Under the pieces are notes generated by a model. The model saw nothing but the letters and a program-made list of their open reading frames with translations, made no database searches and was not told the DNA's origin. Position numbers and translations under genes: made by a program. A stretch of 59,377 nt of DNA, filler included, from Dugesia japonica (taxonomy: Eukaryota), in assembly GCA_001938525.1 (NCBI GenBank). It is 6 parts of 6 records of this genome, joined end to end, with 100 filler letters (N's around TTAATTAATTAA, not from the genome) between each part and the next. Parts side by side here need not be neighbours in the genome. Positions count along the whole stretch, not along the records: positions 19,764 to 29,772 come from MQRL01616891.1; 5 more parts are not named here. One strand, 5' to 3'. Below, piece after piece: positions 2,129-56,744 of this stretch; position 1 is the stretch's first letter; each line of letters begins with the position of its first letter.

Positions 2129-2565
2129 GTGGATGGCCCAAGAATTGACCTCACACATGATGCATGGTTCTTTGACGAGTATATCAAAAAATACATGAAT
2201 GCGTACTCTGTTGATAGCGCTTTTGTTCACATTGACCCATGCATCATCCAAATTGTGGTTGCTCAAAGTAGCTCTTTTGCTTATCTTGGCTGTGATATAA
2301 GCAGACTGTCAACTGCTCGTCGCATAATCACCTCAGTGAATATTGACAATCAACACTGGGCTCTATTCTTTTACGACACACCCAATGGAATTGTATGCAA
2401 CATTGATCCCCTCAGATCTCCCTTCAGGCCGGATGTTGCTGCAAGACATGGCGAACACCTAACCAATGAGTTGGACGCAGCTCTTATTGAGCATGTTGTG
2501 TTTTCTTTGGCGTAATTTGACAGAGAAACACAACAGAATAGCTATGATTGTGGACCATTCGTTTA
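2129..2565 (+). pseudogene. Ulp1/C48 SUMO-protease-like domain of the non-LTR element
   Basis: IITSVNIDNQHWALFFYD...IDPL, then after a stop QQNSYDCGPF (2531-2560), giving the His/Asp/Gln/Cys catalytic set. Confidence 0.82.
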
Positions 2566-10069: not shown

Positions 10070-10950
10070 ATCGCTTTTACCTAGTAATAGTAGTCGACAA
10101 TTTCATCCAAATAATACTGCTAGTTATTACATTGCTGAGCTTAAAAAATCCAATTTACATGAATGGTAGTTGGGAATTACCCATGATGGATTTTACCTTT
10201 TTATATTCAACCATGCCAATTTACATTTAATCTAGGATTGAATATTATATATTTAAACCAATTAAGAAAGAACTTATACTTGATGTTAAGATTTAAAAAA
10301 ATAAATTGCTTTAACTGTATATTCTCTAGATAAATATAAAATTAATACAGAAATAGATATAACATTTAAGAAAAATACGATAACCTTTAGTGGTGATATG
10401 ATATTCCACAGTCTATCATTTGATACTTTTGAAAACTTGGTAGGATTTACATATGGTACAGGGGAAGTTAAGAGAACGTATAATTAATATAATATTAAAA
10501 TTTAAATATTATTATGCAATTTTATCTAAACATTATTTTCAATTTCAATCCGATTTGTATATAAAGGATTTAAATCAACTAAATTATTATTTTAAGAAAG
10601 TTCTTTCAATGTTATTTCAAAGGTTTTCTTTAAAGCAAGATGAACGTTTTGGATTTACATTGTTAAGTAGGACTAAATGTGACAAATTCGATATAATTTT
10701 AACAAAATTATTATGATTAGAAGAATCACAATATAATCAAATACGTCTTGATGATGAACGACTACAATATGATAATCATATCACAACATATATATAGTAC
10801 AAAATATGGGATATTTGGACAAGAATTTGATTTGCAGAATAATACTTTAAGATTTTAAGGATAATTATCTCTTCTTTACATTTGTTCTTGAGCCAGAATT
10901 TGATATAAATCAGAGTCAATTACCTCAACAAAGAAATTTGAGATTGGAAA
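10070..10950 (+). pseudogene. Polinton/adintovirus minor capsid (penton)-like remnant
   Basis: SLLPSNSSRQFHPNNTASYYIAELKK(frameshift)PIYMNGSWELPMMDFTF matches the Polinton penton N-terminus LPSNSS..FP.NT.S.F...L...I.L.G.WEV.L; the downstream extent is approximate. Confidence 0.7.
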
Positions 10951-11049
10951 TCANNNNNNNNNNNNNNNNNNNNNNNNNNNNNNNNNNNNNNNNNNNNNNN
11001 NNNNNNNNNNNNNNNNNNNNNNNGGGACAGTATTGGTGTAAACAATGCC

Positions 11050-11345
11050 ATGTATTCCTGAAACAATAGCAATGAGGTAAGAGTTATTAAATTATTTATT
11101 GTTTAATTTATTAATTCTATTCAGATTGATTGGATTGCATCAATGTGGCTTGGATCAGCATGGCTAGGCTTCTATGCATTGGATAAACTTCCAAATTATG
11201 TTCCAGTAAACAATGTCTTAATCGTCAATGTTGGTGTCGCATTTATCAAAATTATCAAAACCAATTGTGTACAATAAAATTCGTTATCAAGATCCATTTT
11301 CAACTACCACACTGTTTATTATGGTTAAAACAACCAATAATACAG
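11050..11345 (+). pseudogene. Polinton adenain-like cysteine protease remnant, apparently with a 48-nt GT-AG intron (11077-11124)
   Basis: Spliced reading NSNE|IDWIASMWLGSAWLGFYALDKLPNYVPVNNVLIVN, then YNKIRYQDPFSTT..HCLLWL. The catalytic His and CG segments appear deleted. Confidence 0.6.
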
Positions 11346-13349
11346 ATGAAATATTTATTTGCCTGTATTTGTATTATACAAAATATATGCTTTATTGATA
11401 AAAATATCTTAATAACATTGTTTTGTGTAATCTGTTGTTATAATTAATTATTGTTTGGAAATGATTATCTTGAAATTTATTACATATAAATCAAAATAAT
11501 TTAAATCTTAATTTAAATGTCATTGATAAACTGAGTAATTTCTTTATTTTCTATGTTATTTTGAATGTCCAAAATTTAGGATGTTTGATATTTTTTTAAA
11601 TAACTATGCAATTATATTCTTGTAGAATCACAATATTTTAATCCTACAATATTAAAATCTTATAAAACTTATAAACACATACACTCATAAACTCCATAAA
11701 ATATATACTAAAATAAGGAAATATGATGAAGAATATATGAAAATTAAAGAAGAAATAGATTATATCGATATACTTAAACTAAAATCGAAAATGACTTTCA
11801 CTTTCAAATACAGTCAATATGAGATTTTAAATATGGCTACTCTCTATTTTCTCCTATTCTATTTTATTCATTTTCTTTTAGGAGCGTTAATAGATATGTT
11901 CTTAGAAAAAAGAAAGTCGGATGAAGATTATCATCCGATGATACCAGGAATCTTTATCAATGAATATATGGAAACAGAATGTTGTACAAATTTCTGTGAA
12001 TCTTGCTGTAGAGTAAACATACAAATATTTTTGGGGCAGTAGAAAATTATTTTTCATATTAGTGCTTTAAATATTTAGTTTTTTATTTCTAATTTATTTT
12101 GTAAAAAGAAAACACAATACAAATTAATAACATTATTTTGTATAATCTGATATTATAATGGAGGTCTGGAAATTATTGTTAGAAATTAGTATTTAGAAAT
12201 GTATTATATATAAAGCAATATAATTTAAATTTGAATTTAAATGTTATTGATTAACTGTAAAATTGAATTAATTGTAATTNNNNNNNNNNNNNNNNNNCCA
12301 AAATTTAGGATGTTTAATATATTTTTTAAAATAACTATAAAATTATATTCTTGTAGAGCCACAAGATTTGAACCCATATGATAATAAAACGCATAAACAC
12401 ATACATTCATTAGCCAATTAGTCTCCAATAAACCCATTAATTTTATTAATTCTAATAAAATAGACATAATTTGTTTTAACGGGTCAAATTAAATTAATTC
12501 CATCAAAACCCCAATGTTCCTCATTAATTCATTAATTATGTTATGAAAATGTTATTTTTTTTTATCACAATTTCAAAATTATTTTACAAAAACAATGAAT
12601 TATTAGAACAAAAAAGTAAATTTATTATTTTGTTTTTAAATTTTTAATTTTTTTGGTTTGTAAGATTATTATGATTGAAATTATTGCATGATTATTAATA
12701 AGTAACTATAAGTCTCAGTTGTCTCATTATTATCATCTCGGAAATATAGAAAATTTTAAAAACCTAATAAAGAAGAATTTGTTGGATACAATTACAGATC
12801 TATTATATAATCTGAATGATAAGAGTATAATTGGTTATAATTAATTGGTTACAGAAGCAACAGTATCAGAAAATAATCATTGAGTGCCCAATTTGAAGAA
12901 TTATTTATGACAATAAAGAAGAAATTATAGTATTAAATAAATCGCAATCTATTTTAGCAGAGCATTTTGCAAAATTAAATTATGATTTCATAGTTAATAA
13001 AGAAATACGGAAGAGAAGAAGAAGAAAAACTATATATTGAATTATTAGAAGTGATGACATTTTGACCTGATAATTATGAGACAATTAAAGATAAACAGAT
13101 AAAATATTTTATAGAAAACGAATTTAACAGAAATATGGAGAAAATATTTAACCGGCAATTATTAATTATAAACGATTGTAATATATTTAACAATTGTACA
13201 TGTGTTGCATTTAATGTAAATTTCTTTTTATTTGTTATTTTTTCTTCATTTATTTTAATAACATTAAGACAAAAACCATAAAAATTAACAAAATTACTTT
13301 TTTATAAAAAATAAACATATTTATTTCTTCAAGATGGTTAGTGAAAACT

Positions 13350-16307: not shown

Positions 16308-16601
16308 TATTAGTTTTATTTGTTTTCTTCATTTTAATCAATATTTATTTAAAAATATATTTTACAAATATAAAACTTTCAAATTAAAAATAATAAAACG
16401 ATAAAATCTAATTATTAAACTTTTAACTAAATATTTACATTTAAAAACTTTTGTAAATAAATATTTTTATAAAGTCTTACAATTAAATTTCAAATATACA
16501 TTTAAAAGTGTAAACTAATAAACATTGATTTGCATATAGACATTAAAACATTATTGCATTAAATTTTAAAAATATTTACAAATTTTTAAAATAACCTAAC
16601 A
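16308..16601. mobile_element. Solo LTR (T[A]TTAG...CTAACA family), TSD GAGAC/GAGAT
   Basis: Same termini as 32274-32620 and 54406-54767; 5-bp flanks differ by one base. Confidence 0.7.
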
Positions 16602-17090
16602 GAGATATTCACTTATTGCAATGAACTTGAAGGCATCAACAAGTTGAATTTTCAAGTTTTGGAAACACTAAAAGATTTGCTAAAACCTATTACACTGGCA
16701 GTTGAAGTACTAAAATTCGAAGGTGCAACTTTATTAACAGCTCACACAACCATTAATTTTATGCTAAACAAATTAAGAGACCAAAATACAGACAATGACA
16801 TAGAATTGTACGAAAATTTGAAGCGCCGAACAGATGAAAGAACTAATACTGATGACTTAAACTTGCTCGATTTTTTAAAAAATTTCGAAAAATCTTCATC
16901 AAAAGGCACGATAGCGTATTCTGGTAGCTGGTTTCTCATTATTTTGGCACATTATCAGCTGAACATGGACATAATGGAGGTGAAGAATCATTTCAGCTCG
17001 ATTTTAATCCAATCGAAGAATTATCATTCCGTAATAAACTGAATATGCTGTTGCAAAAGTCTTCAGAGCCTAAAGCATCATTAGAGCTGT
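16602..17090 (+). pseudogene. hAT-like DNA transposase fragment
   Basis: LETLKDLLKPITLAVEVLKFEGATLLTAHTTINFMLNKL...LYENLKRRTDER resembles the hAT C-terminal helical region. Confidence 0.55.
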
Positions 17091-17749: not shown

Positions 17750-18844
17750 TTATTTTGTCATTCCTAAAAAATCCTGCATATGTCGTTTGAACTTTTTCAT
17801 TTGAAAGTAATATACAAAAATATTGACTGATTGTTGAATAAAAAAAAATTCCCAACCAATATCTGAAATATTGAATATTATAACTAAAGTATCTAAATAT
17901 TCTAGTGGTCGTTGATTAATTATTATTAAATACCATATATAAACTGAAATATGTGGAATGGATCCAAGAATGAATATGAATGATAAAATTAAAACAAAAA
18001 CAACAGATTTAATTTCTTTTCGTGTTTTATCAAAATTCGAGTTTTGAATTGATAAAATTAACAACCTTTTTGTGTTATGTTTAGATAGCCATAATTTGTA
18101 AATTAATAAAAAATTTGTTAAAATGATGCTAAATATCGGAACTAGTCCAGGTATAGTAAACGCTGTTCTTATAAATTGAACAATCTTTTCCAAATATGAA
18201 TTATTAAAATAATAATTACTACAGTCAAGCTTTCCACTAGTATTTTCTAATTTTGTAAAAATACAAATAAAACCAACAACTAATCCTGTAAAAATGTAAA
18301 TGAATCCCACTATTATTTTTGCGAAATTTCCTCCATATTTCATCATTTTGATTGGAAAAAATATTGCTAAACATCGATCAATACAAATTCCTAAAAATAT
18401 ATAAAATCCAACTGAAACTGTATACATATAAGCAAAGCGATATACGATACATGACGTGGTATTTATATATTTGATAAACAAATATAATTTCCCATTTGTA
18501 GCATATGGCAAGCCTTTGGCTACAAAACACCATAACCATCCATAAGACAATAAATACCCGATATCTGTAATTGATAACCCTATTAATAATATATTTTGTC
18601 TATTTCGTCGTTTATATTTTAATGAAAATATATAAATAATAATTACGTTGCTAAAAATGCCAAAAGTTCCAATAAATGGAAATGCATATGAAGACCAAAT
18701 ACCCATTATTTGACTAAGAATACATAGAGTATTAAACAAAGAAATATTCGTTTCGTTTTTAGTGGCTTCTTCACATGCATAAAGTAAATCATAAGGAGTG
18801 TCTAATAAAGGAAATTTGTCTCTAAGAACAGAAAATGAAAACAT
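17750..18844 (-). CDS. Intronless orphan rhodopsin-family (class A) GPCR, flatworm-expanded peptide-receptor-like type
   Basis: Intact 364-aa ORF with seven hydrophobic segments; GxxxN in TM1 (GIFSN), LSITD in TM2, DRC at the end of TM3 (CIDRCLAIFFP), IP in TM6, NIFVY in TM7; KGLPYATNG in ECL1. Confidence 0.92.
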   Translation of the reverse strand: MFSFSVLRDKFPLLDTPYDLLYACEEATKNETNISLFNTLCILSQIMGIWSSYAFPFIGTFGIFSNVIIIYIFSLKYKRRNRQNILLIGLSITDIGYLLSYGWLWCFVAKGLPYATNGKLYLFIKYINTTSCIVYRFAYMYTVSVGFYIFLGICIDRCLAIFFPIKMMKYGGNFAKIIVGFIYIFTGLVVGFICIFTKLENTSGKLDCSNYYFNNSYLEKIVQFIRTAFTIPGLVPIFSIILTNFLLIYKLWLSKHNTKRLLILSIQNSNFDKTRKEIKSVVFVLILSFIFILGSIPHISVYIWYLIIINQRPLEYLDTLVIIFNISDIGWEFFFIQQSVNIFVYYFQMKKFKRHMQDFLGMTK

Positions 18845-19663
18845 TATTAAATTTTAGCCAATTTAGCATTAAATTTATAATAAACTTAACCAAATAAAAT
18901 CATTTAAATTATTAACCAATGATAAAAGTGCTATAAAAATTGTCATATTATTAAAAATAGTGAAATATTACATTTTAAACAAAATAATACAAAATATTTT
19001 GCACAAAATTGTGATTTTTCTATACATAATTCAATTAAAATTTTATTAGTAATTAGTAAGATATCAAACAATTAAGTACTGAAAAATACATTTAAACCTT
19101 ACAAATTTATTAGTAGAAACTAATAAAATTTCACGAAATTTTCAATTATTTTAAATAAAGTCTTAACAGAATACAATACTGTAAAAACATTTTAAATTGG
19201 CAGAAAATAAGAAAACTAGATAATTTCCCTGAGAGATAATTCTCCTTAAGGAAAAATAACAAAATGTTTAAAACGAAATATGATAGCAGACCATTTTAAT
19301 GTGTAGTATTTTGGATAATGATAATTCATGCTACTCAGGAGCTACATTTTTAACCTTTTAACCATTTGGGAACTTTTATATAACATGTTTAATAAGGTTT
19401 TTGACATTTTCTGATTGAACTTTCATCTCATGTATATGATATCTTTTTTATGTTTTATTATATTTTCTAACAACAGATTAGACACCAATATTATACATTT
19501 CAGTAGAGGGAAGCATTCACCCTGGCTCACTTGTGAAATTTGGTTTCTTACATAATCAACACACACAATAAGCATGACATATAACCTATTACGTTATCAC
19601 CCTCATGGAACTTGGAATTACAAAATTACTATGTTACATAATATATTTTCGTTACTATTATTA

Positions 19664-19763
19664 NNNNNNNNNNNNNNNNNNNNNNNNNNNNNNNNNNNNN
19701 NNNNNNNTTAATTAATTAANNNNNNNNNNNNNNNNNNNNNNNNNNNNNNNNNNNNNNNNNNNN
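19664..19763. other. Artificial scaffold-joining spacer
   Basis: 44N-TTAATTAATTAA-44N. Confidence 0.97.
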
Positions 19764-19769
19764 TTAATG

Positions 19770-20961
19770 AAATTGCACTCCCAATACCCTAAGTTCGATT
19801 AGTTTTCGACACATAGGGCATTCATTTAAATTTTAAGCGCAGCTGTAACTGGTTTTGAAGTTTCCACATGGAAGAAAAATAACTTCGATAGTTTCCTCCA
19901 GGCATATGGCACAGTCGTTATCCAATAATGCCCGTTCTTGTTTGTATTATTTTTGCAGCTCTTCTAATTTGAGTGATCGTTGGTATAATTCGTGTGGTGT
20001 GATTAATTCAGTCCCTTTCTCTGTGACCGTTTGTTTTATTAGTTAGTTGATATTTCCTTTCTTTAGCTTTAGTGTATTATTCAGCCTACTTGCCTGCAGT
20101 TCTACTGCCATTTCTATTCGGTTGAAAGACATATTCCATTCAATTCTGCAAGCTGTTGCTATTAATTCTTCCTCACCGATTGGCTGTACTCTGGAACATT
20201 TTGGTTGATGGAACATCGCCTTTGATAACTTCTTTACTTCTTTTAATAACGTGGTTTCTCGTTTACAGGTAGTGTATTTAATTACTTTGTCGTTAGTTTG
20301 TTGAACGAGGTATAATCCGTCCATTGCTTTCTCTTTCAGGCCTGGTATTTCCTGGAAAGTTTTTTCTCTAGCTTCGACATTCCATTCAAGATCATCTGGT
20401 AATGTCACTTCTGCTAGATTCTTTATGATTTTGCAATATAATTTTTTCAGTTGCAGTGTTGTTTTCTCAGTTTCTGGGTTTCTACCTTTGGTTGGCTGAG
20501 TTTTATTATTCACTTCTAGGTTTTGCAAGAAAAGAACAGATAGGAAACCATTTCTTGTGGGCTCTATTGGGTTTCTAGTTTCTCCCCCATTTGCACAGGT
20601 TGCCTTGGCAGTATATGCATTTCACCTTGTCTAGACGTTCTTGAGTACCGGCGAAATAAAATCCAGATCTGGCTATACCCTCAATGAGTCTATGTAGATG
20701 CTTTGGTAACTCGAATAAGGATTTTCTTCGCATACCTTCATCACAATATNTATTGTCAAACACTTTCATCGCACTATACCACACTTTCCGTCGTATAAAA
20801 TTTTCAGGTGCTCCAACGCTATTATGATAATACATTATGTTTTGCACTATTCTGATTTGCTTAATTTCATCTCGTCCTTGGCTCATGCAATGTAATTCAA
20901 TATATGGGTCATTCATTTTGATTCTGGCCTCGCTTATTGATAGTTCCAGATTAAATTCCAT
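19770..20961 (-). pseudogene. IAP-like protein: BIR domain, helical/coiled linker and C-terminal RING
   Basis: BIR: EGMRRKSL...IARSGFYFAG...DKVKCIYCQGNLCKWGRN*KPNRAHKKWFPICSFL. RING (19805-19915): CAICLEETIEVIFLPCGNFKTSYSCA*NLNECPMCRK. Stops, one frameshift and two ligand substitutions. Confidence 0.9.
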
Positions 20962-21179
20962 TATCTACAATTATAGGTACGGTTGATTCTAGTTATAGTA
21001 TTATTTATTTACATTAATTTTAATTAGTCGTTTATTTACCGTTTTTTTAAAGATTACTTGCGTATATAAATAGTTCCTAGTAGATATTTATGTATATAGT
21101 TTATATATTTCAGTATATAGTTTTTATATATATTTTATTTTATCATATTTTTGTCATATATATATATTTTTTAACTTCT

Positions 21180-21815
21180 GCTCTCCCTTAGATTTCAGAC
21201 AAAGCTGACTTGGATGTGAGCACTCCGGGTCTTGAGTGTCTCAATTTCCCACTTTTGTGAGTTTAAGGTAGTTAAGTTCTCTCGACTGATCAGAGATCAG
21301 ATCGTGTTGTTTAGCTGTTAACTCCATTGCGTAATTTTGTTTTTCTGTGGTAATTTCCAACATTCGTCGATTTTCTATTATTTGTTGTCGACACATAAGG
21401 GTTTCTGCATATAAATTCTCGTTTTGAAGTTGTAGGATTTTATTTTTAAATTCCAGCTCGCACCAATCTAGGGGATTTATAGTTATTAGGGTTTGTATAA
21501 ATTGATTTTGACTGTGCTCCAGTTCTTCTAATCGTTGTTGAGTCCATTGAGTTTTGATTTTAGCGCTATTCCATAATTCTTTCATTTCCTCATTATGATT
21601 TCTCCATATTTCATTGATCGTCACTTGTGAACAGATAATGTTATATTATTTATTGATGTGATACTTCCTGCAGGACTACTACATATGTCGCCTTGTGAGT
21701 CCATTAACTCATTCTCACCCATACTGGAATAGTCATTTTCATTTTCGATCTGACTCATTTTGTCTGAATAAGAGAGCTTTATTAATACCACAATTATAAT
21801 TACACGTTTATACAT
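21180..21815 (-). pseudogene. Coiled-coil accessory protein of the retroelement (frameshifted at ~21622)
   Basis: ORFs 21621-21815 and 21241-21624 overlap by 4 nt; heptad-rich Q/E/L/K sequence. Confidence 0.5.
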
Positions 21816-21868
21816 TACATATTTATTTTCATCATGATTTACAGTATTTACACGGATTCGAGATTAGT

Positions 21869-22683
21869 TTAACAGGTCATTATCCCCGGTGCCTGATAGG
21901 GTCTAGGCACATATGTGGGTAATCCGTTTGATATCATCCCCAGTGGTAATAATTCGTAATTTTGTGGGGCTACTGGTAGGTGTCGTCTTTTCCCTTTCCG
22001 ACTATGTTTCTTTCGTTTGGGTTTTGTTTGCTTACAGAATTGCACATATAGTGTGATTAATATCAGTACCGCTATTAATACACTCCCTACTATCATTATA
22101 TGGTCTGTTCCTTTTTTGGTTGGTTTAATGGTAACGATTGGTTCTTTCATTGAAGTAGGCCCATCCCATATCATCATCTGATCTTCCTTTGGCTGGTAAT
22201 TCCTCAGGTTTAACATTAAATTGTTTAGGAAGTTTGTTTTTTTGTTTTTTTCCCTCATTGGCCGCCGTAGTTGGTTTTTGAGTTTCCGTTATTGTGGTTT
22301 TCTCTGTGGTAGTTGTAGTACTTATTTTAACCTTTGGTTTAGTATTGTTCAGTTTTATTCTTATATCCCGATTTATAACTGTGGTGAATTCCATTTCCCA
22401 CATTTCCGGTCCAAAGCTACCCATGTTCACTCCTTGTTCTTGTAATGCATTTTCTTTGAATCCTGATATTTTTTCATTATACGCCCATCCCCATTGAGCG
22501 AGTGAATAGTATTTCTGTGCCGTTAATTGTTCCTTTTTTTCGTTAATCCGTAATTGATATGTGTTGTTCATTTTTCTGATCCGTACAGGTCCTGGACCTT
22601 CCTGCCAACGAGAACCCCATTTTCCAAACGTGTATTCGGTTATCGAGTGGAATCCTTTTCCCCGATTAATGGCTATACTTTTT
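21869..22683 (-). pseudogene. Type-I membrane protein with Thr-rich mucin-like stalk, TM helix and basic cytoplasmic tail (5' part lost in the N gap)
   Basis: STTTTTEKTTITETQKPTT stalk; TM IMIVGSVLIAVLILITLYVQFC followed by KQTKPKRKKHSRKGKRR; tail motifs YELL and LPTY; frameshift near 22250. Confidence 0.65.
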
Positions 22684-22760
22684 NNNNNNNNNNNNNNNNN
22701 NNNNNNNNNNNNNNNNNNNNNNNNNNNNNNNNNNNNNNNNNNNNNNNNNNNNNNNNNNNN

Positions 22761-23230
22761 GCTTTTACTATTGCCATGATTTCGCGTTCGGTTGTGCTAT
22801 AATTTAGTTCAGCTCCTTGAAATTTCTTGCTGAAATAAGCGATCACTCTCTCTCTTCCCTGTTCATCCAATTGGCTTAATATGGCACCCATCGCGTATCC
22901 ACTAGCGTCAGTGGCTAATATAAATGGTTTCTTGAAATTCGGATGCACCAAAATTGGTGCAGTTAATAATTTTTCCCGTAATGTCTCAAATGATTGTTGT
23001 TGTTCCGGCCCCCATATAAAGGCAGTATCTTGTTTGACCAATTCTTGCATGGGTTTTGAGATTTTTGCGAAATCTTTGATAAATTTGAGGTAATAGTTTG
23101 CGAGTCCTAAAAACTCCTGTATTTTGAGTACACAATTACGGGGTTCTAGGTTTCTGATTTTCTCAGTGTTTCTTGGATCTGGCTCCTTCCCTTTATTTGA
23201 TATTAAATGACCTCAATATGTCACTTTTTT
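22761..23230 (-). pseudogene. Gypsy RT connection domain and RNase H (truncated by the N gap)
   Basis: QEFLGLANYYLKFIKDFAKI; WGPEQQQSFETLREKLLTAPILVHPNFKKPFILATDASGYAMGAILSQ...YSTTEREIMAIV. Confidence 0.95.
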
Positions 23231-23800
23231 CTAGGCCCATTTGCATTTGGTAGGTTTCACTTTCAAGTTCCATTTTTGTAACCTTATAAACACATTACGC
23301 AAGTCATTAAGATGTCCTTGAAATGTTGGCGAATAGATTAATAGATCATCAATATAGGCCATACATTGAGATATACCGTGAGTTACATAATTCATCATTC
23401 GTTGAAAAGAGGCTGGTGCATTAGTAAGCCCGAATGGCATACGGATAAATTGGTATAAGTCTTTGCCTGTGGAAAAGGCTGTTTTCTCTCTGTCTTCTGG
23501 TTTAATTTGTATTTGCCAATAACTGCTTCGCAAGTCCAGTGTGGTGAATATTTTGGCGTTACAGGGTAACTGTAATAATTCATTGATGTCCGGCAGCGGA
23601 TATGTATCTTTTTTAGTTTGTGCATTTAATCTTCTGTAATCGATACAGAATCGCTGTGTCCCATTTTTCTATCGACTATTACCACTGGTGACTGCCATGT
23701 AGAGCAGCTAGGTTCGATCACACCGATTTTCACTAATTTAGCCGTTTCTTTATTTGCAAACTCTTTTTTCTCCACTGTCATGGCATATGGCTTCTGTTTG
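23231..23800 (-). pseudogene. Ty3/Gypsy reverse transcriptase
   Basis: CIDYRRLN, YPLPDI, LDLRSSYWQI, KTAFST, MPFGLTNAPASFQR, YIDD (23345-23356), KCKW; frameshift near 23665 and a stop at 23231. Confidence 0.96.
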
Positions 23801-24009
23801 CTTGGGGTTTCGTCCGTTAGTTGATTTGTGTGCATTGTAGCTATGCACATACCTAGTTCTTCATCAGTCCATGCAAAATTATCTCTAAACTCCTCCAGCA
23901 TTTGTAGTATTGTCTGTTTCTGATCATCCGACAAAGTTTCTGTCTCTACTTTAAATGTTCTATCTATTTCCAGTTCGGCGATTGTTTCCTCTATCAAGTC
24001 AAGTTCTGG

Positions 24010-24270
24010 TTCAATGGGAGTTAGTGTACCTATTCTAGAATTTGGTTTGATTGTGATATCTTTTTCGGTGAAGTTGACTAAACTAACTGGTACTTCTCCA
24101 CTTTTGTTGACTGTGATTATTCCTCCTGCTGTAGGTAACTCGTACTGTTGTGCAAATCCATCGTACGGTTCAAAATAACAATCTCCTTCGTATGCACTTT
24201 TGGTACTGACTACACAATATGCTTGGCATCTATTAGGTACCAAGATTTCTTTCGTAGTGAATACTTCGTG
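24010..24270 (-). other. dUTPase-like beta fold between protease and RT (catalytic motifs absent)
   Basis: EILVPNRCQAYCVV...GGIITVNKSGEVPVSLVNFTEKDITIKPNSRIGTL follows the V.N...I.I..G.RIG.L dUTPase-fold pattern common in animal Gypsy pol. Confidence 0.55.
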
Positions 24271-24329
24271 ATCTTTCACATGGGTATACCCTTCCAAGGA
24301 TTGCAATTGTAATTTGGAGAAGTTAAATA

Positions 24330-24630
24330 TACCATTCTTCATCAAAATTGGAAGAATGTCCGTACCCAAAATGCGCTGTCCAGCCATTTCGACTATTATC
24401 ATTTTGTGTTTGATTTTGTTGTCCTGATATTCTACGTCACAAGCTAATTCCCCAAAAATTTTAAGACTGCTTCCGTTTGCCACATCGGCTGTAGTGTTAG
24501 TGGGTAATATGTTTTTATATTCTGTTATCGCGATTTCTTCTATTGATAACAATGAGATTGTTGCTCCTGTGTCTAATAAAGCTGTTGTGGGTCTACCATT
24601 GATTTTAACCATAATTGTTAATACGGGTCC
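24330..24630 (-). CDS. Retropepsin aspartic protease domain 2
   Basis: VKINGRPTTALLDTGATISLL...VANGSSLKIFG...RILGTDIL within ORF 23626-25437. Confidence 0.93.
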
Positions 24631-24949
24631 GCCGTTGAGACTTGCGCATACTAACTCCGAAAGGTCACAATTGGGGTTGAGTTGTTTTCTGTCTTTCCAC
24701 CTTAGTTTTCGTTCTTGGAATCTTATCCAATCGTTCGTTATCATGGAGGCTGTATTGGTAATTTTCCGACGAGCTTGATTTAAGTTATTTTGTTCACCTC
24801 TGCCTGATGAGAGTTGCTGCTGCTGGTTAGGTGTTGAATGATTCCACCGCTGTGGTCGTTTCTGTTTGGTTATTATTCGAGTTTTCTGATACCCTGCTGG
24901 TGCATATTCTTGATCGTAGTTTTCCCGTATTGTTAGTTTCCTCAAATAT

Positions 24950-25260
24950 AATATTCCATCCGGGCATAGGCGTGGTAAGAGGTCCAGTCCTAATAAGCAG
25001 TAAAATGTTAATTCATTCATTATTTGTAATTTATGCCAAAGACGGATTCCGTCGCTTTCTATCGCACATATTGCTTCCCTAACAGGTGAGATTTTTTCTC
25101 CAGAGGCCGTGATGATAACTCCTTTAGTTATTGTTATTCTGAGTAGTCGATAATCTTCTAATATTTTTTTGTGGACTAACGTCGTACTTGTTCCCGTATC
25201 GATAATGGCTATTACCCATCTTCCGTCTATTTTTATCCTTTTTTGTAATAGTTTCGCTCT
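24950..25260 (-). CDS. Retropepsin aspartic protease domain 1
   Basis: IKIDGRWVIAIIDTGTSTTLV...ITASGEKI...CLLGLDLL within ORF 23626-25437. Confidence 0.9.
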
Positions 25261-25449
25261 CTGAGAAATCATCATACATACGGTTTGGGTTTCTAACTTA
25301 TCAATTTCAGTGATCTGGTTATTCGGAGAGCACAAGTTTTGGTCAGTCACTCTTCGATCAATAGTCGATAAATTGCTCTCTGTTAATAATACCATATTAG
25401 GAGCTTGTGGTGGACTCATATATGGGTTGTTGTACATGGGGCCTGGTGC

Positions 25450-27765
25450 TCATACCTGTTGTGGTTGTGGATTCATGGGTTGCCACCCATGTTGTGGATA
25501 AGCATCATAATACATTTGTGCTGGTGCTGCTGTATTTTCGTTTCCTCCGAATTTTAACGCGTTTCTCAGTCGTTGCATTTTGCTGATTTTTTCGTATTGT
25601 TGTCTTTTATACTCCGCATTGTATTCCATGGCGGTTTTATAACTGGGTACATGTAGTGTTCCTCTGCTTTCTCCTCTATCTTCGTCGCTGCTGCTATTAC
25701 TTTCATCTTTGTTCTTAAATCTTTCTTTGAATTGGCTGAAATACGATATTTTCTGTTTAGCATTGCTCATTTCTTCACACAATAACCTAAGTTGCATTAT
25801 GACCTCCTTGTTCAATCCTCTTATTTGTCCTTTTTTCCATATAAATCGTTTTACCCTGTCAATGTCTTTGGAGTGGCTATTAAGCACCATGGTTTGGGCT
25901 GAGAATGGGAAGATACCGGTTACCATTTTCCAATTCACTTTTTTTTCTCTTTTATATATGTCAAAACATGCAAACAATTGAGTAATCACTACTCGTGTTA
26001 CTGAAATTATCAGCATCACTCCCAGTAATCCTGCCATTGCTTGGCCATATATTATGAATCTTCCCCCCATTTTCCGCATGACATTTTCAGTAGCTTTCTG
26101 GAAATGATCGACCGACAAGAGCGCATTGTAATTTACACGCCAGTCTATATTGGTTCCACTAGTTAATTACACTATATTTGATAGGATTTGCATCCTTCGG
26201 ACTGGAAACAGCATTTATTCCCTAGCCTTCTCTAGATCTTCCCTGCTATAGATTCCTCCTTTATTTATATCAATTGGGGTGAATTACATACCTCCATTTA
26301 ATTGTAACATTGAGAATTTCCGCGGTTTGACTCCCACTGCCATTCGTTGGGGAAATCTTATCCATGAACCATCTTTCATTATGTATTGTGATCCAAATAC
26401 ATTAGAGCAAATTTATGATATTTGGTCTATAACCCAAAGGGGATATTATTCGAGTAATTGGTTGTACGTAACGTTTCTCATTGTTATGTATGATTTCTAT
26501 TTCATTATAGCAAAGTTTTGGGTTAGATAAAAACTCTGCTTTGCATTTGTATAGGTACATTACTTCTCCTACGACTCGACCAAATTGACCTTTTTCCAGC
26601 TGAAGTAAGTGGGTGACACAATCTGGGTTCGTAACTGCCATTGCTAACTTTGTCTTTAGTATTTCCTTATTCAACGTACAGTCATTCTGGATCAGATCGT
26701 GGTACATTCGTCCGATGGTATCCTGCATTCGATGGAATAAATTGTCCATTTTATTATTGGCATTTAGATTTAGTTTGATATCTTGTGACATTACTGCTGC
26801 CTGCGCCGTTTTTATTCGATGTTTTGACACGAATATTCTTTTATAGTTCGTTTTATACACTATTTGTGCACATTTTGACATGGAATTTCCTTTGATTAAT
26901 CGGATGGTCTCATCCTAGCACCGTGGGGGTTGTATGCCATTGTTGGTAGTATGATTTTGGACCTGATCTTATCGTTTATTTAAAATTATTTATCCTATCT
27001 TTTAGATTACCCTCTTTTGGGGCTTGATCAATAGGTACTATAGCTCGTTGCCCTTGGTATTCATTGAACATAGCCTCTTTTAGATGCGCCAACTTGCAAT
27101 CCTTGTGATCTACTTTGTATGTCAATGTTGATGTAACTGTATTACATGATCCATCCGCTGCTTTGCAGTATGACCTTCCTTTCATGGTCACATCCTGAGC
27201 ATAAAAAAATGCTTCATATTCCTTGAGTTCTACGGTGTAGGTTTCGATTGCTACCGCATACTGCCATACTTTTCCTCGTATAGTGTATGTACCATATTCG
27301 CTGTTACCTTTGTGTGAGGATATACTTCCTGCTGCTTCTATTGGCTGGTCGACTATATATCCCTTTTTGGCGATAACTTGAGTCCCGTGTTTGATGGTAA
27401 TTTTACCTGTCGTAAATCTTTCGTCGCATTGTTGTCCCATTAGATGTACAGGATGTCTCACTGTTCCTGGATCAATTATCGAGGTATAACTGTGATAACC
27501 ACAATGAAATATAAATGTCTTTACCGTTACTGTACATTCACGTACTTGGGCCTTATAATAATCCGACTCCTGGTACAAGTGGTAAATAGAATTATTACGG
27601 GAGTGAGATTTTCTCCGGGTTCGCGTCTGGACATTCTTCAGTATCCACTAAGGAGAATACTTCTTTTCCTACTTGCATCTCATCGCAGTCATATGTCAAT
27701 ATGGCTTCACTTCTGCCCATCATTAAGAATAGTAAGAGTATTGTAGTTTTTAATGCTTGCCATGA
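25450..27765 (-). pseudogene. Chuvirus-type (class III) envelope fusion glycoprotein with signal peptide, TM anchor and long cytoplasmic tail
   Basis: Signal peptide QALKTTILLLFLMMGRSEA then ILTYDC...FSLVDTEEC; VRECTVTVKTFIFHCGYHS; MYHDLIQNDCTLNKEILKTKLAMAVTNPD; GEVMYLYKC; CYNEIEI..N.KRYVQPITRII; GIYSREDLEKARE*MLFP; TM FIIYGQAMAGLLGVMLIISV. Several frameshifts and stops. Confidence 0.85.
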
Positions 27766-27830
27766 ATTTCGGCGAGGCCCACGTGCCCATCCATTCTCGA
27801 TCTCATTTAACTGATCCCGAATAATCCTGA

Positions 27831-28925
27831 TTACTGATTTTCATAAGAAGGCTGAGGCTTAGGGCATATGGCCTCAATAAACTTTTTCCATCCCCCATGC
27901 TGCTTTATCAATGGCACTATTTTGCTCTGCATTAGATCCACTATCGGTAATTTACTGAGGATGAAGTTTTTTGACGGCTTGCTTCTAGCAATTGATAGAT
28001 GTGTTTGTTTAATCAAATGGGCTATGGATACTGCTATCCTCCCTTTCGTTGGCTGATCCTGTAACAATTCATCCCTTACCCCTTCCAGGTTATCCCTTGT
28101 GCCATGGCTAGTACCTTTAGTGGCAGGAAATTTCCTAATGGCTGCTTCTATTTCTTTTGCTAGTGGTCTGAGACNNNNNGATAGTTGAAATTTCCCAATC
28201 CATATTTTTAGTTCTGGATATAACATTAGCAATAACTGCCGTATTACCACTTCGGTTGGCATATCATCATCCGTTGAATTTTCGTGGTATTTCTCTTGTG
28301 ATACCGTTGCTAATCGCTTATTTTGATGGTTTATGGATGTTGCTAATCGTCTCTGTTTTAATGCTTCTTCTTCTTCCGGATTTCCTGGGGGTTTTGTTCT
28401 TGGTCGGCCTCTATTACGAGGTTCAGTAACTGTTTCTGCATCCACTGTGGTGCTTACTGGTTTTGGGGGCACTTCTTCCTCTTCTGTCTCTATAGGATTT
28501 TCCATTTCTAAGGGGTGGTTTGTATCCATTAAATCGTCTATGACTGAAGATGGCAATTCTTTTGCTATTCTACTCAATATTGGTGATAATGGTTGTTCCT
28601 CTAATACATCTTCTTCGTCTAAGTCTACCTTGCTAGGATCATATTTCTTGCTTCGGGTGGGCTCTTTAGCTTTCATTTCCTCGCTTTTTCTAGTTGGAGG
28701 TGAGTATCTTGTGATTTGTAATTCATTCTTATCTTCTGTTAACTCGTCTGCTGATGGAGATCCGAATATTTTACGTTCCCAATCTTGGCTTGTTTTAGGA
28801 GTTTCTTTTGTTTCTCGGGAAGCTTCTGTACTTTCTGATTGATCGGTTGTAGGTCTTAATATTTGGCTAGCCGCTAATTGTGTACGGTTTTTATATGCTT
28901 TTAACATACCTGAGGTCTCTCCCAT
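27831..28925 (-). CDS. Acidic low-complexity region with AT-hook, followed by a Bcl-2-like domain
   Basis: AT-hook RNRGRPR (~28397-28418); BH3-like LRPLAKEIE; BH1-like VRDELLQDQPTKGRIAV; BH2-like LIKQHGGWKKFIE. Confidence 0.78.
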   Translation of the reverse strand: MGETSGMLKAYKNRTQLAASQILRPTTDQSESTEASRETKETPKTSQDWERKIFGSPSADELTEDKNELQITRYSPPTRKSEEMKAKEPTRSKKYDPSKVDLDEEDVLEEQPLSPILSRIAKELPSSVIDDLMDTNHPLEMENPIETEEEEVPPKPVSTTVDAETVTEPRNRGRPRTKPPGNPEEEEALKQRRLATSINHQNKRLATVSQEKYHENSTDDDMPTEVVIRQLLLMLYPELKIWIGKFQLXXXLRPLAKEIEAAIRKFPATKGTSHGTRDNLEGVRDELLQDQPTKGRIAVSIAHLIKQTHLSIARSKPSKNFILSKLPIVDLMQSKIVPLIKQHGGWKKFIEAICPKPQPSYENQ

Positions 28926-28982
28926 TATTGGTCTTGTTTTGTCTGCTGCCTTATAAGGGCCTGCGTCTTTTCGAGTGAGGGT

Positions 28983-29197
28983 ACCTCCTAATTCTGCTAA
29001 AATCCATGGCGTATTAGGTTTAACTAAATCTATTTCATTAGTCCAATTGGGGTGGTATCTTCCACTATTTCATCTTCGTTCAAAAGTTTGTATGGTGGCT
29101 TAAATGGTAGCTTTTCTCGCAGGTGCTTTATTGTATTATATACTAGTATCTTAATCGTGATTTTGTCTCCCTCTGGATCGATTATTCTGAATTTGAC
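28983..29197 (-). pseudogene. Ubiquitin/SUMO-like domain ending in di-glycine
   Basis: VKFRIIDPEGDKITIKILVYNTIKHLREKL...YKLLNEDEIVEDTTPIGL(frameshift ~29040)NEIDLVKPNTPWILAELGG; the GG-bearing frame continues into ORF 27831-28925. Confidence 0.6.
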
Positions 29198-29637
29198 TTC
29201 TAATGGGGTGGTCTGTCCCATCTCCGCTTTTTGCCATTTAACCAGAATTTTATTAAACTGAATATGATCCCATACATGGCATACTTTGATGGCCAGGATT
29301 AACCGTCGCAACTTTCTGAGATCTTCTACTGCCAGATCTTGTTGTAAGACTATATTGCATCGTCATATGATTTCCGGATTTATTAACTTATCGCCTACTA
29401 ACAATTCGAATAATTTTAGCAAATTGTCTTCCGGCTTCTCACCTTTGATTGGGTTGTTAGTCAGAGCTACTACCATCTCTACTCGTTGTTTACTTTGTTC
29501 TTGTTTCGGGAGTTTGGCTCTGGCGAATACTAGTGGGTGTATCTCTTCTATGTAATATTCCACTACTTCTCTAGCTTCCTGCTTCCATTTCTCCTCCGAC
29601 ACCCGTAGTCGTCGTCTCTCCTCATCCTTTGCTGTTA

Positions 29638-29772
29638 TGTTGGGGTGAAACACCGGATTAAGGCAAATATTATGGCGTAGGTAAACACGAAATTTAAAAA
29701 ATCTACATAAAAAAAGAAAATGAAGAATTCGGATCCAAGAAGGGCATAGTCAAGTTAGAGAGAAGAATTACG
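29638..29772. mobile_element. LTR-like terminus TGTTGGGGTGAAACACC interrupting the polyprotein (nested insertion)
   Basis: The same 17-nt terminus occurs at 41471; coding potential stops abruptly at this point. Confidence 0.65.
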
Positions 29773-29872
29773 NNNNNNNNNNNNNNNNNNNNNNNNNNNN
29801 NNNNNNNNNNNNNNNNTTAATTAATTAANNNNNNNNNNNNNNNNNNNNNNNNNNNNNNNNNNNNNNNNNNNN
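29773..29872. other. Artificial scaffold-joining spacer
   Basis: 44N-TTAATTAATTAA-44N. Confidence 0.97.
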
Positions 29873-30534
29873 TGATCTTCTATGTTCAGTACTCTCTCTA
29901 AAATTATATCGGGATCCTTGATTATCTATGATTGTTTATTTGGTTGATTCGCAGATTGATTGGTTTATCTTGATTTATTTGATATTTGGAATATTGATTG
30001 TTTTGATTTCTGAAATTAAATAATATGGCCCTACGGCTTCTGCAAGCATTCAAATATTATTATCGCATTCATTAATTGACTACTTTTATCTACTTTTATC
30101 AACCGATTGATACCTCTATTGATTGATAATATCTACCAATTACTACACTATGATACATTACCATACTTTATTTCTATTACTTTAGCATCGCATTTACTTC
30201 ATTTGCTTTTATCACTCAATTGTTTATTATACATAAGCAGCAATTTTATTTATTTATGTCAACTGAAATACCATTTTCAATATTTTGCTGTTTTGAAAAA
30301 GTTCATCTCAGATTATTAATTCCTATTATAAATCGTATAATTTAACAGCTTAAAATGCTCTTGGACTCAAGTTCCACGAAATCATTAACCCTCAAATAGT
30401 GTAGATTTTCTGGATGTGTTTTTGACACATTACTCCAACAGACTCCATTAATTCATTTCGTATTTCATTACATTTGGTTCCTCCGTTGAGCTCATGACTC
30501 CTTTACTCATTAATAAATTTTATTCATTTCTCAT

Positions 30535-30960
30535 GGAACATTTCCGCCTGCTCCTGACAAACTTTCATCGATGAAAGCTCTTTAATTTACTGAAAGCCTC
30601 AAATATCTCACCATATAATTGATTAACTCATTGTTTTTACTTTTACTCGACATTTCGCATTATAATATTTCCGCCTAATCCCGACAATTTGTCTTTCGGA
30701 CAAATTTCACAATTAATCAATACTCACTTTATCTCCATTTCATTTCCCCTAATAGAACAATCCAGCCTGTTCCTGGCAATTCATCTTCCGAATTAACTTT
30801 TATAACTAATTGACGATCAATTTATTTCGACTTCATATCTTACGTTGGGACAATCTCACCTGTTCCTGGCAGTTTATCCTCCGGATAAACTTTTACTATT
30901 AATCAACAATCACTTTATTTTATTTCCCTTTTACGTTGAAACAATTCCGCCTGTTTATAC
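30535..30960. repeat. Degenerate ~90-125-bp tandem units with core CCGCCTGTTCCTG(A/G)CAA
   Basis: Cores at ~30544, 30671, 30762, 30856 and 30947. Confidence 0.7.
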
Positions 30961-32273
30961 CCCTGATTATTTTTTCACAACTAATCAATGAATAAATTAT
31001 CTCCACTTTGCATTGTTCATTTGTAGGACTATTTACTCAATTTCGACACTGTTCCTTTTTCCTTTAAATTATTTAAATTACTAATTTGTCGGCTATACCT
31101 TTCCCTTCACCACTTTACATTAGTACTCCTGAATTATCAACAATGGAACTCTTGCGCTGGTTCCTGGTGAATTCCCTTGTGACATGTTTTGTAAGTTCAA
31201 AGCTCCTCCTCCATAATAATTATCAATAAAATTCTCCTCAACTAATACGATTTAACTATACCTTCGGATAATTTTATTATTTCTTTCGATTTAACTATAC
31301 ACTTGGATAGTTTTATCATTTCCGACCAGGTTTTCCTTAGTTCTCTTCTCGGTGGCCAACCGACAAAGTATCCGGAACGAATTAGTGGTAATTAACTCAC
31401 TACTCCAATATTTGCTTCAATAAATTTGATTAAATTTCGTTATCATCTCTCCTTCAAATAAATTTCAACCTTTTTCTTGCTAGTATATTTGCTTTGAACA
31501 CTCTCTCTATGTAGCCGGTAGTCCATTTCAGCTCCAGATGGGCGACAATTTCGATCCTCAATTAACAATAATACTTTAATATCTCAATACTTGAGTTAGT
31601 TGACAGTCTATTTCAAATTCAGCTCTAACCAGGATGTTTTACCCTCAATCTAAAAGTCTGTATAGCTACGGGTAGTTAGCTGTAATGAGTGAGTGTCAAG
31701 GCGCACTCACGCCAACCGAACGCCATAAGTGGTCAGCTTAATAGATGCGATGCTCCCTCGTTTATTCCCCTGGAATTCCTGAGTTGATCTCGCTTGGACT
31801 AAACTCCATTCTCCCGGCGTAGAAGTCAGACAAAGTATCCAACTTCCGAGATCGTTACTCCTTATCCGAAGCGTCGAAGTCCGTTCCAGCATATCCACGG
31901 AAGATTTTCTACTCCACCAATACTTCGAAGATTTCTGTCCCTAGGTCAATAACAATTTCAATCATTTCAGTCATTAGACGATCATTGCAGCTGTCCCTTC
32001 AAAGCTGAACAGGCTTCTAGTTCTAGCTTCCTTATCGCGGACCCTATTTTCCAAAATGACATCCACCATTACGACATCGTTTCCTTGGGTTCTTTCACAT
32101 ATCTATGGTTACGCTAGAAATTTTCTTTCTTCTGATTACTATGATAAAACTCTCCCACAAAATTAGATCTAAATTCAAAATTAATTAACTCATATGAAAC
32201 TCTCTTTTCAAACACGATTGTCATCAATTACTTCCAAACATGTACTTATTATTTTCTCCAATATTATCCTCAT

Positions 32274-32620
32274 TGTTAGTTTTATTAGTTTTTTTCTTCA
32301 TTTAAATCAACTAAAACAAGACTTTTAATTCAATACTTTATTTCAATTACAATTAATTCTTCTTTGAAATTCTTCTTTTTTTTTGAATGTTTCTTTCAAA
32401 ATTTGCTTTTCCCAATTTATATTTTTAAATAATAATACATATAAACAAATTTATTATATTGACTAAAAATATATTTTACAAATATTTCGAATTTATATTT
32501 TAAAAATTTCAACGAATTAATATTAATTTTCAAATTTCATTAAAAAATTTAAACTAATAAATAAAAACCTTATTGAATTAAATTTTAAAAATATTTACAA
32601 ATTTTTAAAATGAGCTAACA
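32274..32620. mobile_element. Solo LTR, TGTTAG...CTAACA, perfect 5-bp TSD CTCAT
   Basis: TG...CA ends with a 6-bp terminal inverted repeat; CTCAT at 32269-32273 and 32621-32625; close homolog at 54406-54767. Confidence 0.88.
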
Positions 32621-42034: not shown

Positions 42035-44050
42035 AACAAATTCCTAAAAAACTTCGCAATTTCTTCACGCCGTTTGGTTTGCCAAATGTTCTTATTGCTT
42101 CTATTTTAGACTTATCAGTTCTAACACCATCTTGGCTAATTATTTGCCCAAGAAATTTTATTTCGCCTTGAAGAAACTCACAATTTTAAGGATTGTTTCT
42201 TAAACCAGCCTTCATAATTTCTTTCAATTACTTCATAGTGTTGATCTTTATTGTTCGTAAATATTAGAATGTCGTCTAGATATACCATGGCTCCATTGAT
42301 TCCGCCAACCACTTTTGTCATCAACAAATGTACCTGGTGCCACTGCTATAAAAAATGTCAATATATTAAAACCATATGGTCCGTGGTTCATTGAAATCGC
42401 CGTTTCTTCTGGAGAATCTTCTTCGAGTTCTATCTACAAGTATGCCTCCCCCAAATCTATTGAACTAAATTATATATATTTTGCTGCATCAAACTTGTCC
42501 AGCATTTTATCGGCGTTAAGCATCGGAAATGCTTGTCACTTCGTTACAGCATTAATATTGTTTTAAATCTAAACATATTCTTATGTTCTTGCTTTCCTTT
42601 TTCCAAAGAAAAATCAATTGGGTATTCCATGGAGAGTTGCATTTACAAATAATATTATTCTCAAAAAGGTTTTGGATAGCTTCTTCAATTATAGCTTCTA
42701 AATTCATTGATTGCCTGTACGATTGTACGTTAAGTTACTTACCACTTTTGGCTATTTTGTTTTTTATGATGTAGGCGTCCTACAATCCCATTTATATGCC
42801 ATAAAATATCTTCTTTATTTTCAAATATTTTTAAATAGCTATTGATCAACTTTAATCTTTAGAGCATTTAAGACTCTCGACAATTTCTCTCCCTTTTTAA
42901 TTTGTCTCCCAAATTTTGCTTCAATATTACAAATGTAATTTTCGACTTTTTCATTAGTTTTATTGTCTACTTTCCTAACAAACTGGTATTCAAAGGTCGT
43001 CTGCATATTTATTCCTCCAATCAGATCTAGTGTCACTCTTTCTGCAACTAAGAAAGTAAACTCTTTGCAAACTTCATCAATAATCACTCCAGTTCTAACT
43101 TTCCTAATAAATTCCAATGTACTACCACTTGCACAACACAATTTTTCATCGCTCACTTCAAAATATAGTTCTTGTAATTTATTAAAACAACTCCAACTCA
43201 ACATTAATTCCACCATATTTTCTTGAATTGACACCGTATTACTTGGTCTGCCTTGCAATTTATGGTACAAAATATTTTCTCTCTGCTCTACATCAAATGT
43301 TCTACATTCATTCTATTTTTCCATCATCTCCAAACTTTTCCTTTTTTAAGAACCTCTATACTTTTTCTGTAATTTTGTCGATATCATTCCACATTTCGTC
43401 TCCTTGATTAAAATGAATCAATTCATTTAACAATGGATGGCTCCAACCAACTGCTCTACTGGCTACTACCACCTGAAATCCCTTTCATGCACTTTCTCAT
43501 ATCCATCATTTGTATAAAATTCTTCATCTGCAATCGCATTTATTCGATTATATTGGTTTCCTGGTCCTCCACCGGTAACAAATGTTTTCAGTTGTTTTCA
43601 TTTTTAAATTAGTGTAACAATTTCCACATCGTTAACATCTCACTTCTTGACATAACCTTTTAAAATAGCCCCATATTCACAACCAAAGCATTTTGTTGGG
43701 TTTTTTTATCTGGATAAACTCGACTTATATGTCCTTTTGTTTGACAAGTCTAACACTCTGGTACTTTTTTTTCGGATAATTTACTTTAGTATGACTGATC
43801 TTATGGCATAACCAACATTCTGTTTTTCGTTTTTCCTTTCCTTGATCTACATATCTAATAACTGTGTAATTTACAGATTTCTTATAATTTCGACTTGTAA
43901 TTGTTTCTTTAATTTCTTCTATATTCGGCAAAGTCACTTCTTTTTCAATCTTTCTGTAATCAACTATTTTGTTGCAATATACTAGCATCTTTGCTAACAT
44001 TTTTGACTCTACAAAATCTTTATTTTTAAATCATTTTTCCATTAAACCTT
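42035..44050 (-). mobile_element. Highly degenerate Ty3/Gypsy gag-pol fragment
   Basis: Decayed zinc knuckle ECWLCHKISH; RT pieces CNSPWNT, FSSIDLGEAY, AMVYLDDILIF, GEIKFLGQIISQDGVRTD. Confidence 0.85.
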
Positions 44051-56500: not shown

Positions 56501-56744
56501 TACATTCTTAAATTACTTTTACCACTGTCTCTCTTAATTTTCCAATATAATATTCCTTTTTTAAATATTTATCACTTTTCCATACCCACGTGTACGATTA
56601 CTTTTACATTCTGAATTTTTATTTATGAAGAAATACTTATTTTGCCGCCTTTAGTTTTTATTATATTTTCATTAATCGTGTCCGAGAAAAATTAGAGTTT
56701 ATTGTGAAAGATCCTTTGATTTAAAACCAATGAAAAAACTTTCA

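Follow-up and report, generated by a model that had tools for sequence, protein, structure and literature searches.

Our analysis of a 59,377-nucleotide stretch of DNA assigned to Dugesia japonica (GCA_001938525.1), an AT-rich, animal-like sequence with many N gaps (hereafter the window), indicates that one of its contigs, MQRL01616891.1, holds a degraded inner portion of a giant Ty3/Gypsy element of Burro type, whose host, judging by the architecture and the literature, is likely a planarian; we put the probability of this reading at about 0.8. The element piece fills the contig (19764-29772), has all its domains on the minus strand, is flanked by unsized scaffold gaps (19664-19763 and 29773-29872) and is interrupted by an inner gap of 77 N. 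Read along that strand, a weak ubiquitin-like (Ubl) domain is followed by an AT-hook, a Bcl-2-like domain, a signal peptide with a fusion glycoprotein, two proteases (PR), a dUTPase-like segment, reverse transcriptase (RT) and the start of RNase H; beyond the gap come a Thr-rich stalk with a transmembrane segment (TM), a coiled coil and a BIR-RING (Table 1).

A preliminary description of this DNA had read that order from one strand of one scaffold, and Pfam, profile and motif positions confirm it. Its central proposal – one enveloped-type Ty3/Gypsy element carrying Bcl-2-like and BIR-RING modules – is supported, as is its choice of Burro as comparator, the published Burro layout being a match. 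Its claim of a candidate new system falls, because the architecture equals that already described for Burro (in section 7 of PMC6431247), an outcome it had itself named beforehand as counting against novelty; an IAP function has also been reported for Burro1 (via PMC13465017). With the architecture known, what is new is one further divergent, decayed, multi-copy family.

Architecture of the element and its relatives

Relatives came from two sources: a HMMER search with the Env-to-dUTPase frame (proteins with P numbers below), from which 17 proteins were chosen for a Pfam scan, and a search for related loci, which gave three in metagenome contigs (L001, L002 and L003, from 593 pattern matches) and none in viral or genome contigs. 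The window itself was scanned with Pfam as 14 translated pieces, stops being read as X.

Protease, RT and RNase H of Ty3/Gypsy type were all recognised (Pfam; RT-RNase H tree), RT at E 1.3e-31 and the start of RNase H at E 2.7e-32 over the first 84 of 100 profile positions. Between the Bcl-2-like domain and protease 1 sits a mononegavirus-type fusion envelope glycoprotein (Env), matched by PF24664 in four consecutive pieces (profile positions 6-49, 49-211, 259-422 and 427-579 of 653; E 3.5e-4, 2.7e-21, 1.2e-23 and 2.8e-20). Its signal peptide is internal and its TM lies at about 26037-25980. The Env frame is broken in the window; in L001, L003, P0008, P0158 and P0162 it is a single frame with Gag/Pol. 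The dUTPase-like segment, a match of moderate strength just below the Pfam cut-off, lies between PR and RT.

The top proteins of the search, which carry Env and protease on a single chain, are collinear with the window (tblastn). The Env family is present in 14 of the 17 scanned proteins, and 12 of these 14 also have a protease match. P0014 and P0024 carry Bcl-2 and then Env; P0013 has CCHC, Ubl, AT-hook, Env and proteases; P0162 runs from Ubl and Env through two proteases to RT, RNase H, integrase and TM. Among the loci, L001 encodes, within a single frame of at least 3426 amino acids, Ubl-Bcl2-Env-three proteases-RT-RNase H-integrase-TM, L002 reads Gag-CCHC-Ubl-AT-hook-Bcl2 with Env after one stop, and L003 reads Gag-Env-PR-RT-integrase, without Ubl or Bcl-2. 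The co-occurrence of modules from Ubl to RNase H that the preliminary description expected of other copies is thus found, over the parts covered, in L001, L002, P0014, P0024 and P0162. A chimeric origin of this block was rejected, since the same order stands in long open frames of relatives.

Both proteases carry DTG (PF13975, two stretches), and the repetition is a family trait. At least two Pfam protease stretches are found in P0008, P0012, P0013, P0015, P0018, P0025, P0160 and P0162, three in L001 and seven in P0158 (which, in 4844 amino acids, also holds ankyrin and C2H2); a single stretch is found in P0009, P0010, P0011, P0028, P0050, P0083 and L003. Our own protease profile agrees with these counts, but was built from the same proteins. 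A protein search with the PR-PR open reading frame (ORF) at longer lengths returned seven generic Gypsy Pols. One relative, P0009 (HBK71150.1), is an Env-PR-RT-integrase polyprotein filed under a Flavobacteriaceae metagenome-assembled genome; it is likely of animal origin, assigned to a bacterial genome during binning.

In a quick RT-RNase H tree of 65 rows (the region is present in 64 of 165 retrieved proteins, and only unnamed relatives are included) the window stands on a long branch within a 12-row group that holds all eight Env-before-Pol rows (SH-aLRT 92); its best identity to any row is 56%.

Several points weigh against this reading. Burro membership rests on architecture, the sequences compared being those of unnamed relatives, and the SH-aLRT of 92 is below 95 and stands without bootstrap. 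A five-row profile found no Gag in the window, the contig stopping at an unsized gap before the expected place; an integrase profile of nine relatives found no match within the stretch, the expected site being the N gap; and no long direct repeat pair that could mark long terminal repeats (LTRs) is among those listed for the window, both sides of the contig being unsized gaps. The weakness of the Ubl call counts in the same direction, and further points surround the 77-N gap (both below). In the flanks, a Pfam scan of 29873-32300 gave no match, hence none to CCHC, MATH or ankyrin domains; the remaining flanks were screened by tblastn and with our own profiles for Gag, protease and integrase.

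That the copy is dead, as the preliminary description held, is borne out by 11 stops in the five counted frames and about eight frame changes across it; this copy could carry out none of the functions proposed below. Four RNA runs sharing their species label with a DNA run were searched over 6-25% of each; the 44 reads that aligned did so over part of their length and below 95%. There being no close reads, these four runs give no sign of transcription of the element family.

Table 1. Features of the element piece, in order along the minus strand (positions in the window)
Feature	Position	Strand	Details
Helical region ahead of Ubl	29213..29749	-	one stop at 29365; no Pfam match above cut-off
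Ubiquitin/SUMO-like domain (weak)	28983..29212	-	frame change near 29035
AT-hook core (RGRP)	28401..28412	-	within acidic linker
Bcl-2-like domain	27837..28271	-	BH3-like 28172-28146, BH1-like 28046, BH2 GGW near 27896
Signal peptide, class III (Monjiviricetes/gB-type) fusion glycoprotein, TM	25950..27750	-	three frame changes, three stops
Aspartic protease 1	24964..25281	-	DTG at 25200
Aspartic protease 2	24334..24645	-	DTG at 24573
dUTPase-like segment	24022..24183	-	PF00692 E 1.9e-4, 21.7 bits, cut-off 22
RT and first part of RNase H	22763..23900	-	YIDD 23356-23345; one frame change, two stops
77-N gap	22684..22760		expected: rest of RNase H, integrase, start of C-terminal membrane module
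Thr-rich stalk, TM (from 22099), basic Pro/Tyr-rich tail	21872..22682	-	likely post-integrase module
Coiled-coil ORF, no family	21244..21645	-	predicted
Intronless IAP-like gene	19764..20961	-	BIR about 20739-20524, C-terminal RING 19913-19809

The Bcl-2-like and ubiquitin-like domains

The Bcl-2-like call is made because four lines of evidence agree: the profile of relatives, the PDB profile, Foldseek and the Atlas. Taken alone, the region gave no Pfam and no PDB sequence match, and a homologous-protein search with it yielded none of 129 candidates. A profile of four relatives, the window left out, matched 28073-27837 (E 3.5e-6), its sole good match place. With a three-row Bcl-2 profile against the PDB, the best 60 of 102 matches were all Bcl-xL/Bcl-2 (best E 5e-4); over 3911 proteins the Bcl-2 profile matched its own two members only. 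Foldseek, run on two models, listed Bcl-2 family rows throughout, at E 0.13 or worse; the AlphaFold models are of low confidence (pLDDT 45 and 58), too weak to judge the BH3-binding groove. The first Atlas match was a Bcl-2-like cluster, named poxvirus Bcl-2-like (0.90), the recognition lying below the Atlas threshold.

A separate issue is the job of the domain, which is less sure because BH1 is degenerate. The canonical BH1 motif is NWGR; the window has TKGR, and GR is missing in four of four relatives. BH2 is the firmer motif, GGWK being invariant in five of five sequences. The domain is placed ahead of Env, lacks a tail anchor of its own and lies some 50-80 residues (49-82, from the BH2 motif) before the Env signal peptide, a placement that points to tethering at the endoplasmic reticulum (ER). 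An anti-apoptotic role, including the mitochondrial death block put forward in the preliminary description, is plausible but stays hypothetical, relatives lacking the BH1 GR. A tentative alternative, which we regard as possible if somewhat doubtful, is that the Bcl-2 fold is a binding scaffold, directed against innate signalling or acting as an ER-tethered adaptor, so that only the IAP would act on cell death. The poxviral Bcl-2-fold proteins A46, A52, B14 and K7 are precedents for such scaffolds, and the altered BH1 here and in the relatives, the poxviral name of the first Atlas cluster, and the missing tail anchor beside the Env signal peptide would all fit; yet the best profile and fold matches are to pro-survival Bcl-xL/Bcl-2, BH2 is kept throughout and the domain travels with an IAP. 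The scaffold alternative concerns function and is compatible with membership of Burro.

The 'Ubl(GG)' of the preliminary description stands in part. In the window the domain is not significant either with the profile of relatives (E 8.9) or with hhalign (probability 1.7%); the region alone found no PDB sequence match, and its profile met ubiquitin-type chains in the PDB at E 0.06-1.5 only. The Atlas gave unnamed clusters first and then named PF11976/PF00240 clusters at 0.85-0.87. The domain is clearer in L002 (PF00240, E 1.1e-4), and a position matching that of relatives with a clearer Ubl is what weakly suggests one here. The GG that follows in the window (28988-28983) has no counterpart within 40 residues after the Ubl in the four relatives that have one; with GG kept in none of the four, a cleavable Ubl-GG was rejected. 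Relatives carry a helical block at the same place as the window's, after Gag-CCHC, and an AT-hook motif also precedes Env in P0008, P0013, P0015/P0158 and L002.

The 77-N gap, the IAP-like gene and the rest of the window

The RNase H motif and the last TM are 797-877 residues apart in five of six relatives (1913 in P0158) and 234 in the window. The relatives are longer here by about 560-640 residues; some 1.7-1.9 kb, with the integrase, is deleted from the window or hidden in a mis-sized gap. A profile of the post-integrase C-termini of seven relatives matched the piece after the gap (E 0.0086), so that the 'mucin/TM protein' of the preliminary description is likely the end of the polyprotein, a post-integrase membrane module: its stalk and TM are present, and it is probably no separate gene. 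A stand-alone mucin gene was rejected on the same match. In P0158, L001, P0162, P0008, P0009, P0018 and P0023 the post-integrase C-termini consist of a signal peptide, an ectodomain, a stalk and a TM. The ectodomain repeats an L-x-P/D-D-T-x-Y-like motif, which has no Pfam match and which we take to be FN3-like.

The IAP-like ORF comprises 1198 bases from the ATG at 20961, with one frame change and four stops. Pfam recognised BIR at E 1.6e-13 and RING at E 2.4e-10; against the PDB the BIR gave 77 matches at E up to 0.01, the best 60 all IAP-family, NAIP first. The features of the IAP family – a BIR with CxxC..H..C (ligands 20619-20536) and a C-terminal RING – are present, though degraded, two of the eight RING positions not being ligands. 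Could this be a host IAP gene, or its retrocopy, beside an inserted element? It is an ORF of its own, which an AT-rich spacer separates from the TM module some 0.9 kb away, and its top PDB matches are cellular NAIP/IAPs. Against this, it has no intron, it is decayed like the rest, and its composition and strand skew are those of the element (GC 0.37 and sense AT skew +0.27, element parts having 0.37-0.40 and +0.21 to +0.37; a host G protein-coupled receptor (GPCR) gene in the window has 0.25 and -0.09). Many diverged copies occur in the DNA runs, and B-IAP is reported inside Burro1 (via PMC13465017). We consider a host origin very improbable.

Evidence on copies comes from public-run contigs mapped from four runs, with 15 of 183 joints and 32 of 63,638 pieces listed and with depth not to be equated with copy number. 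The contigs cover 30 of 30 bins (in X1, 17,794 aligned, 1,363 of them at least 99% alike), and up to 25 contigs in the DNA runs have other letters at one place in the IAP. With all bins covered by many differing copies, the contig as a whole, from its first domain to the IAP, is a diverged repeat. In all four runs the summed depth over 29450-29772 and 21100-21767 is far above that of the neighbours; more abundant repeats may contain the same two segments.

Support for the join between the Ubl-to-RNase H part and the IAP, which lies across the gap, is indirect. Were two things joined there – the Ubl-to-RNase H part from a Burro-type element, the IAP-bearing 3′ end from another element or subfamily – the co-occurrence of Bcl-2 and IAP in this copy would stem from the assembly or from nesting. 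The points around the gap announced above all bear on this: the 1.7-1.9 kb missing where 77 N stand, the lack of a bridging contig among the joints and pieces listed, a summed depth that drops roughly 10-30-fold across most of the 3′ part, and the absence of a BIR motif from every retrieved relative and from the three loci. In addition, L001 has in the IAP position, downstream of its TM, an exonuclease ORF and a coiled-coil ORF, the locus ending at 12920. However, strand and composition are the same on both sides of the gap, the piece after it is the expected post-integrase tail, section 7 of PMC6431247 lists a BIR as well as a BCL2 domain for Burro, and even two joined copies would both be Burro-type. 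We therefore judge a join of two things quite unlikely and retain the reading of one element. The ORFs of L001, an intact relative, are a DEDD exonuclease (10617-12104, plus strand; PF00929, E 1.4e-5) and a coiled coil (12229-12663, plus strand) that shows no similarity to the coiled-coil ORF of the window; with such an exonuclease and unrelated coiled coil in this place, the 3′ accessory region varies between families.

Elsewhere in the window, the GPCR gene (17750-18853, minus strand) is an intact single-exon rhodopsin-family member of 367 amino acids (7tm_1, E 1.3e-13) with host-like composition. A further Ty3/Gypsy RT-RNase H fragment, decayed and apart from the one above, lies at 42039-42770 (minus strand) and shares about 30-40% identity with the relatives; decayed integrase-like pieces lie on opposite strands at 56057-56969. 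GC-richer ORFs at 2081-4530 (plus strand) presumably form the end of a non-LTR element, to judge from what we take to be a CCHC knuckle, a restriction-like endonuclease and, ahead of them, a protease-like piece. By eye, 46478-47053 (minus strand) is a candidate GIY-YIG-like ORF of Penelope type and 16590-17042 (plus strand) a candidate hAT-transposase-like fragment.

Known elements and a proposed mechanism

Planarians harbour giant LTR elements of a Gypsy-like kind, Burro1-4/GYPSM1 (Jurka 2007; Grohme 2018; both as cited in PMC6431247), with long LTRs, a total length above 30 kb and an N-terminal Gag with CCHC knuckles, MATH and ankyrin. Section 7 of that paper gives them a BIR, a BCL2-like domain with a Ubi2/SUMO-like domain (PF11976) ahead of it, an Env between BCL2 and PR that matches mononegavirus fusion glycoproteins, and a dUTPase-like domain between PR and RT. 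The same source proposes integrated proviruses that interfere with apoptosis and ubiquitination, and notes that a third dugesiid genome holds Burro remnants in decay, broken by stops and frameshifts. The window shares the BCL2-like domain, an Env ahead of PR and the dUTPase-like segment, with a weak Ubl in the matching place and a BIR whose link to Pol crosses the gap; MATH, ankyrin, Gag, integrase and LTRs are Burro features with none in this contig, and the likeness is one of architecture. Two proteases, the AT-hook and the likely C-terminal, post-integrase membrane module are found in the window and not mentioned in section 7 (for the proteases a narrow phrase search also came back empty); Grohme 2018 and Lee 2026 may describe them. 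Elsewhere BURRO1 is placed under PIWI control (PMC8532177), and PMC11410931 and PMC13238120 also name Burro.

The IAP has a published parallel. The B-IAP of Burro1 is reported to shield stem cells from caspase-mediated apoptosis and belongs to a family expanded in Dugesiidae and Geoplanidae (Lee, Poulet, Allikka Parambil and van Wolfswinkel, Dev Cell 2026, as given in PMC13465017). Like the window gene it joins BIR and RING, and it lies inside a planarian Gypsy element; the window IAP is broken and the comparison is of architecture.

For Env, the nearest kin are the GAG-ENV-POL gB-type elements of Platyhelminthes, six of them in Schmidtea mediterranea (PMC13524379, Chary and Hayashi), which share with the window a gB-like class III Env upstream of a Ty3/Gypsy Pol. 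In Smed_errantivirus_5, the nearest by eye, about 79 of 178 ungapped Env positions are identical to the window (about 44%, by hand count); the listed Smed pairs are 27-38% identical, except 1 and 2 at 64%. The Smed elements are intact whereas the window copy is not, and at about 44% the window is a distinct family. The words Bcl and Burro were not found in the main text of that paper, whose section 11 calls intercellular spread of gB-bearing elements unknown. BEL/Pao (Anakin-type) elements carry a chuvirus-like glycoprotein of related class (Dezordi 2020, cited in PMC13524379); the window differs in its Ty3/Gypsy-type RT and RNase H and in having Env ahead of the protease.

From these parts a mechanism can be proposed for an intact element, with a topology drawn from hydrophobic segments. 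One polyprotein would comprise Gag, the ubiquitin-like domain, AT-hook, Bcl-2-like domain, envelope, proteases, dUTPase-like domain, RT, RNase H, integrase and a second membrane protein, with a separate BIR-RING protein likely made from the downstream gene. The polyprotein would be threaded through the ER twice: the internal signal peptide would send Env into the lumen, leaving the Gag-Ubl-AT-hook-Bcl-2 part in the cytosol, tied to the ER by that signal peptide; past the Env TM, Pol would be cytosolic and cut by the element's own proteases; and a second signal/TM pair after the integrase would display a further surface protein. By analogy with Burro1 (Lee 2026, via PMC13465017), the BIR-RING protein may bind or ubiquitylate caspases or their regulators and so keep the expressing stem cell alive, and stem-cell survival would favour persistence of the element. 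Envelope-driven spread between cells is plausible, the presence of Env being its sole basis.

The core idea, that a Gypsy element can combine an envelope with modules for apoptosis, has been in print since 2007-2019, and the IAP was tested in 2026. A further step, speculative and in our view unlikely, would make Burro-type elements genuine endogenous viruses of flatworms, equipped with a pair of surface proteins, two to seven proteases and a two-step death block (ER-tethered Bcl-2 and IAP). If that were so, the protease array may act as tethered or specialised pairs, the gB-like fusogen and the post-integrase attachment protein would form that surface pair, and in the family described here, as a divergent lineage, Bcl-2 and IAP would work jointly.

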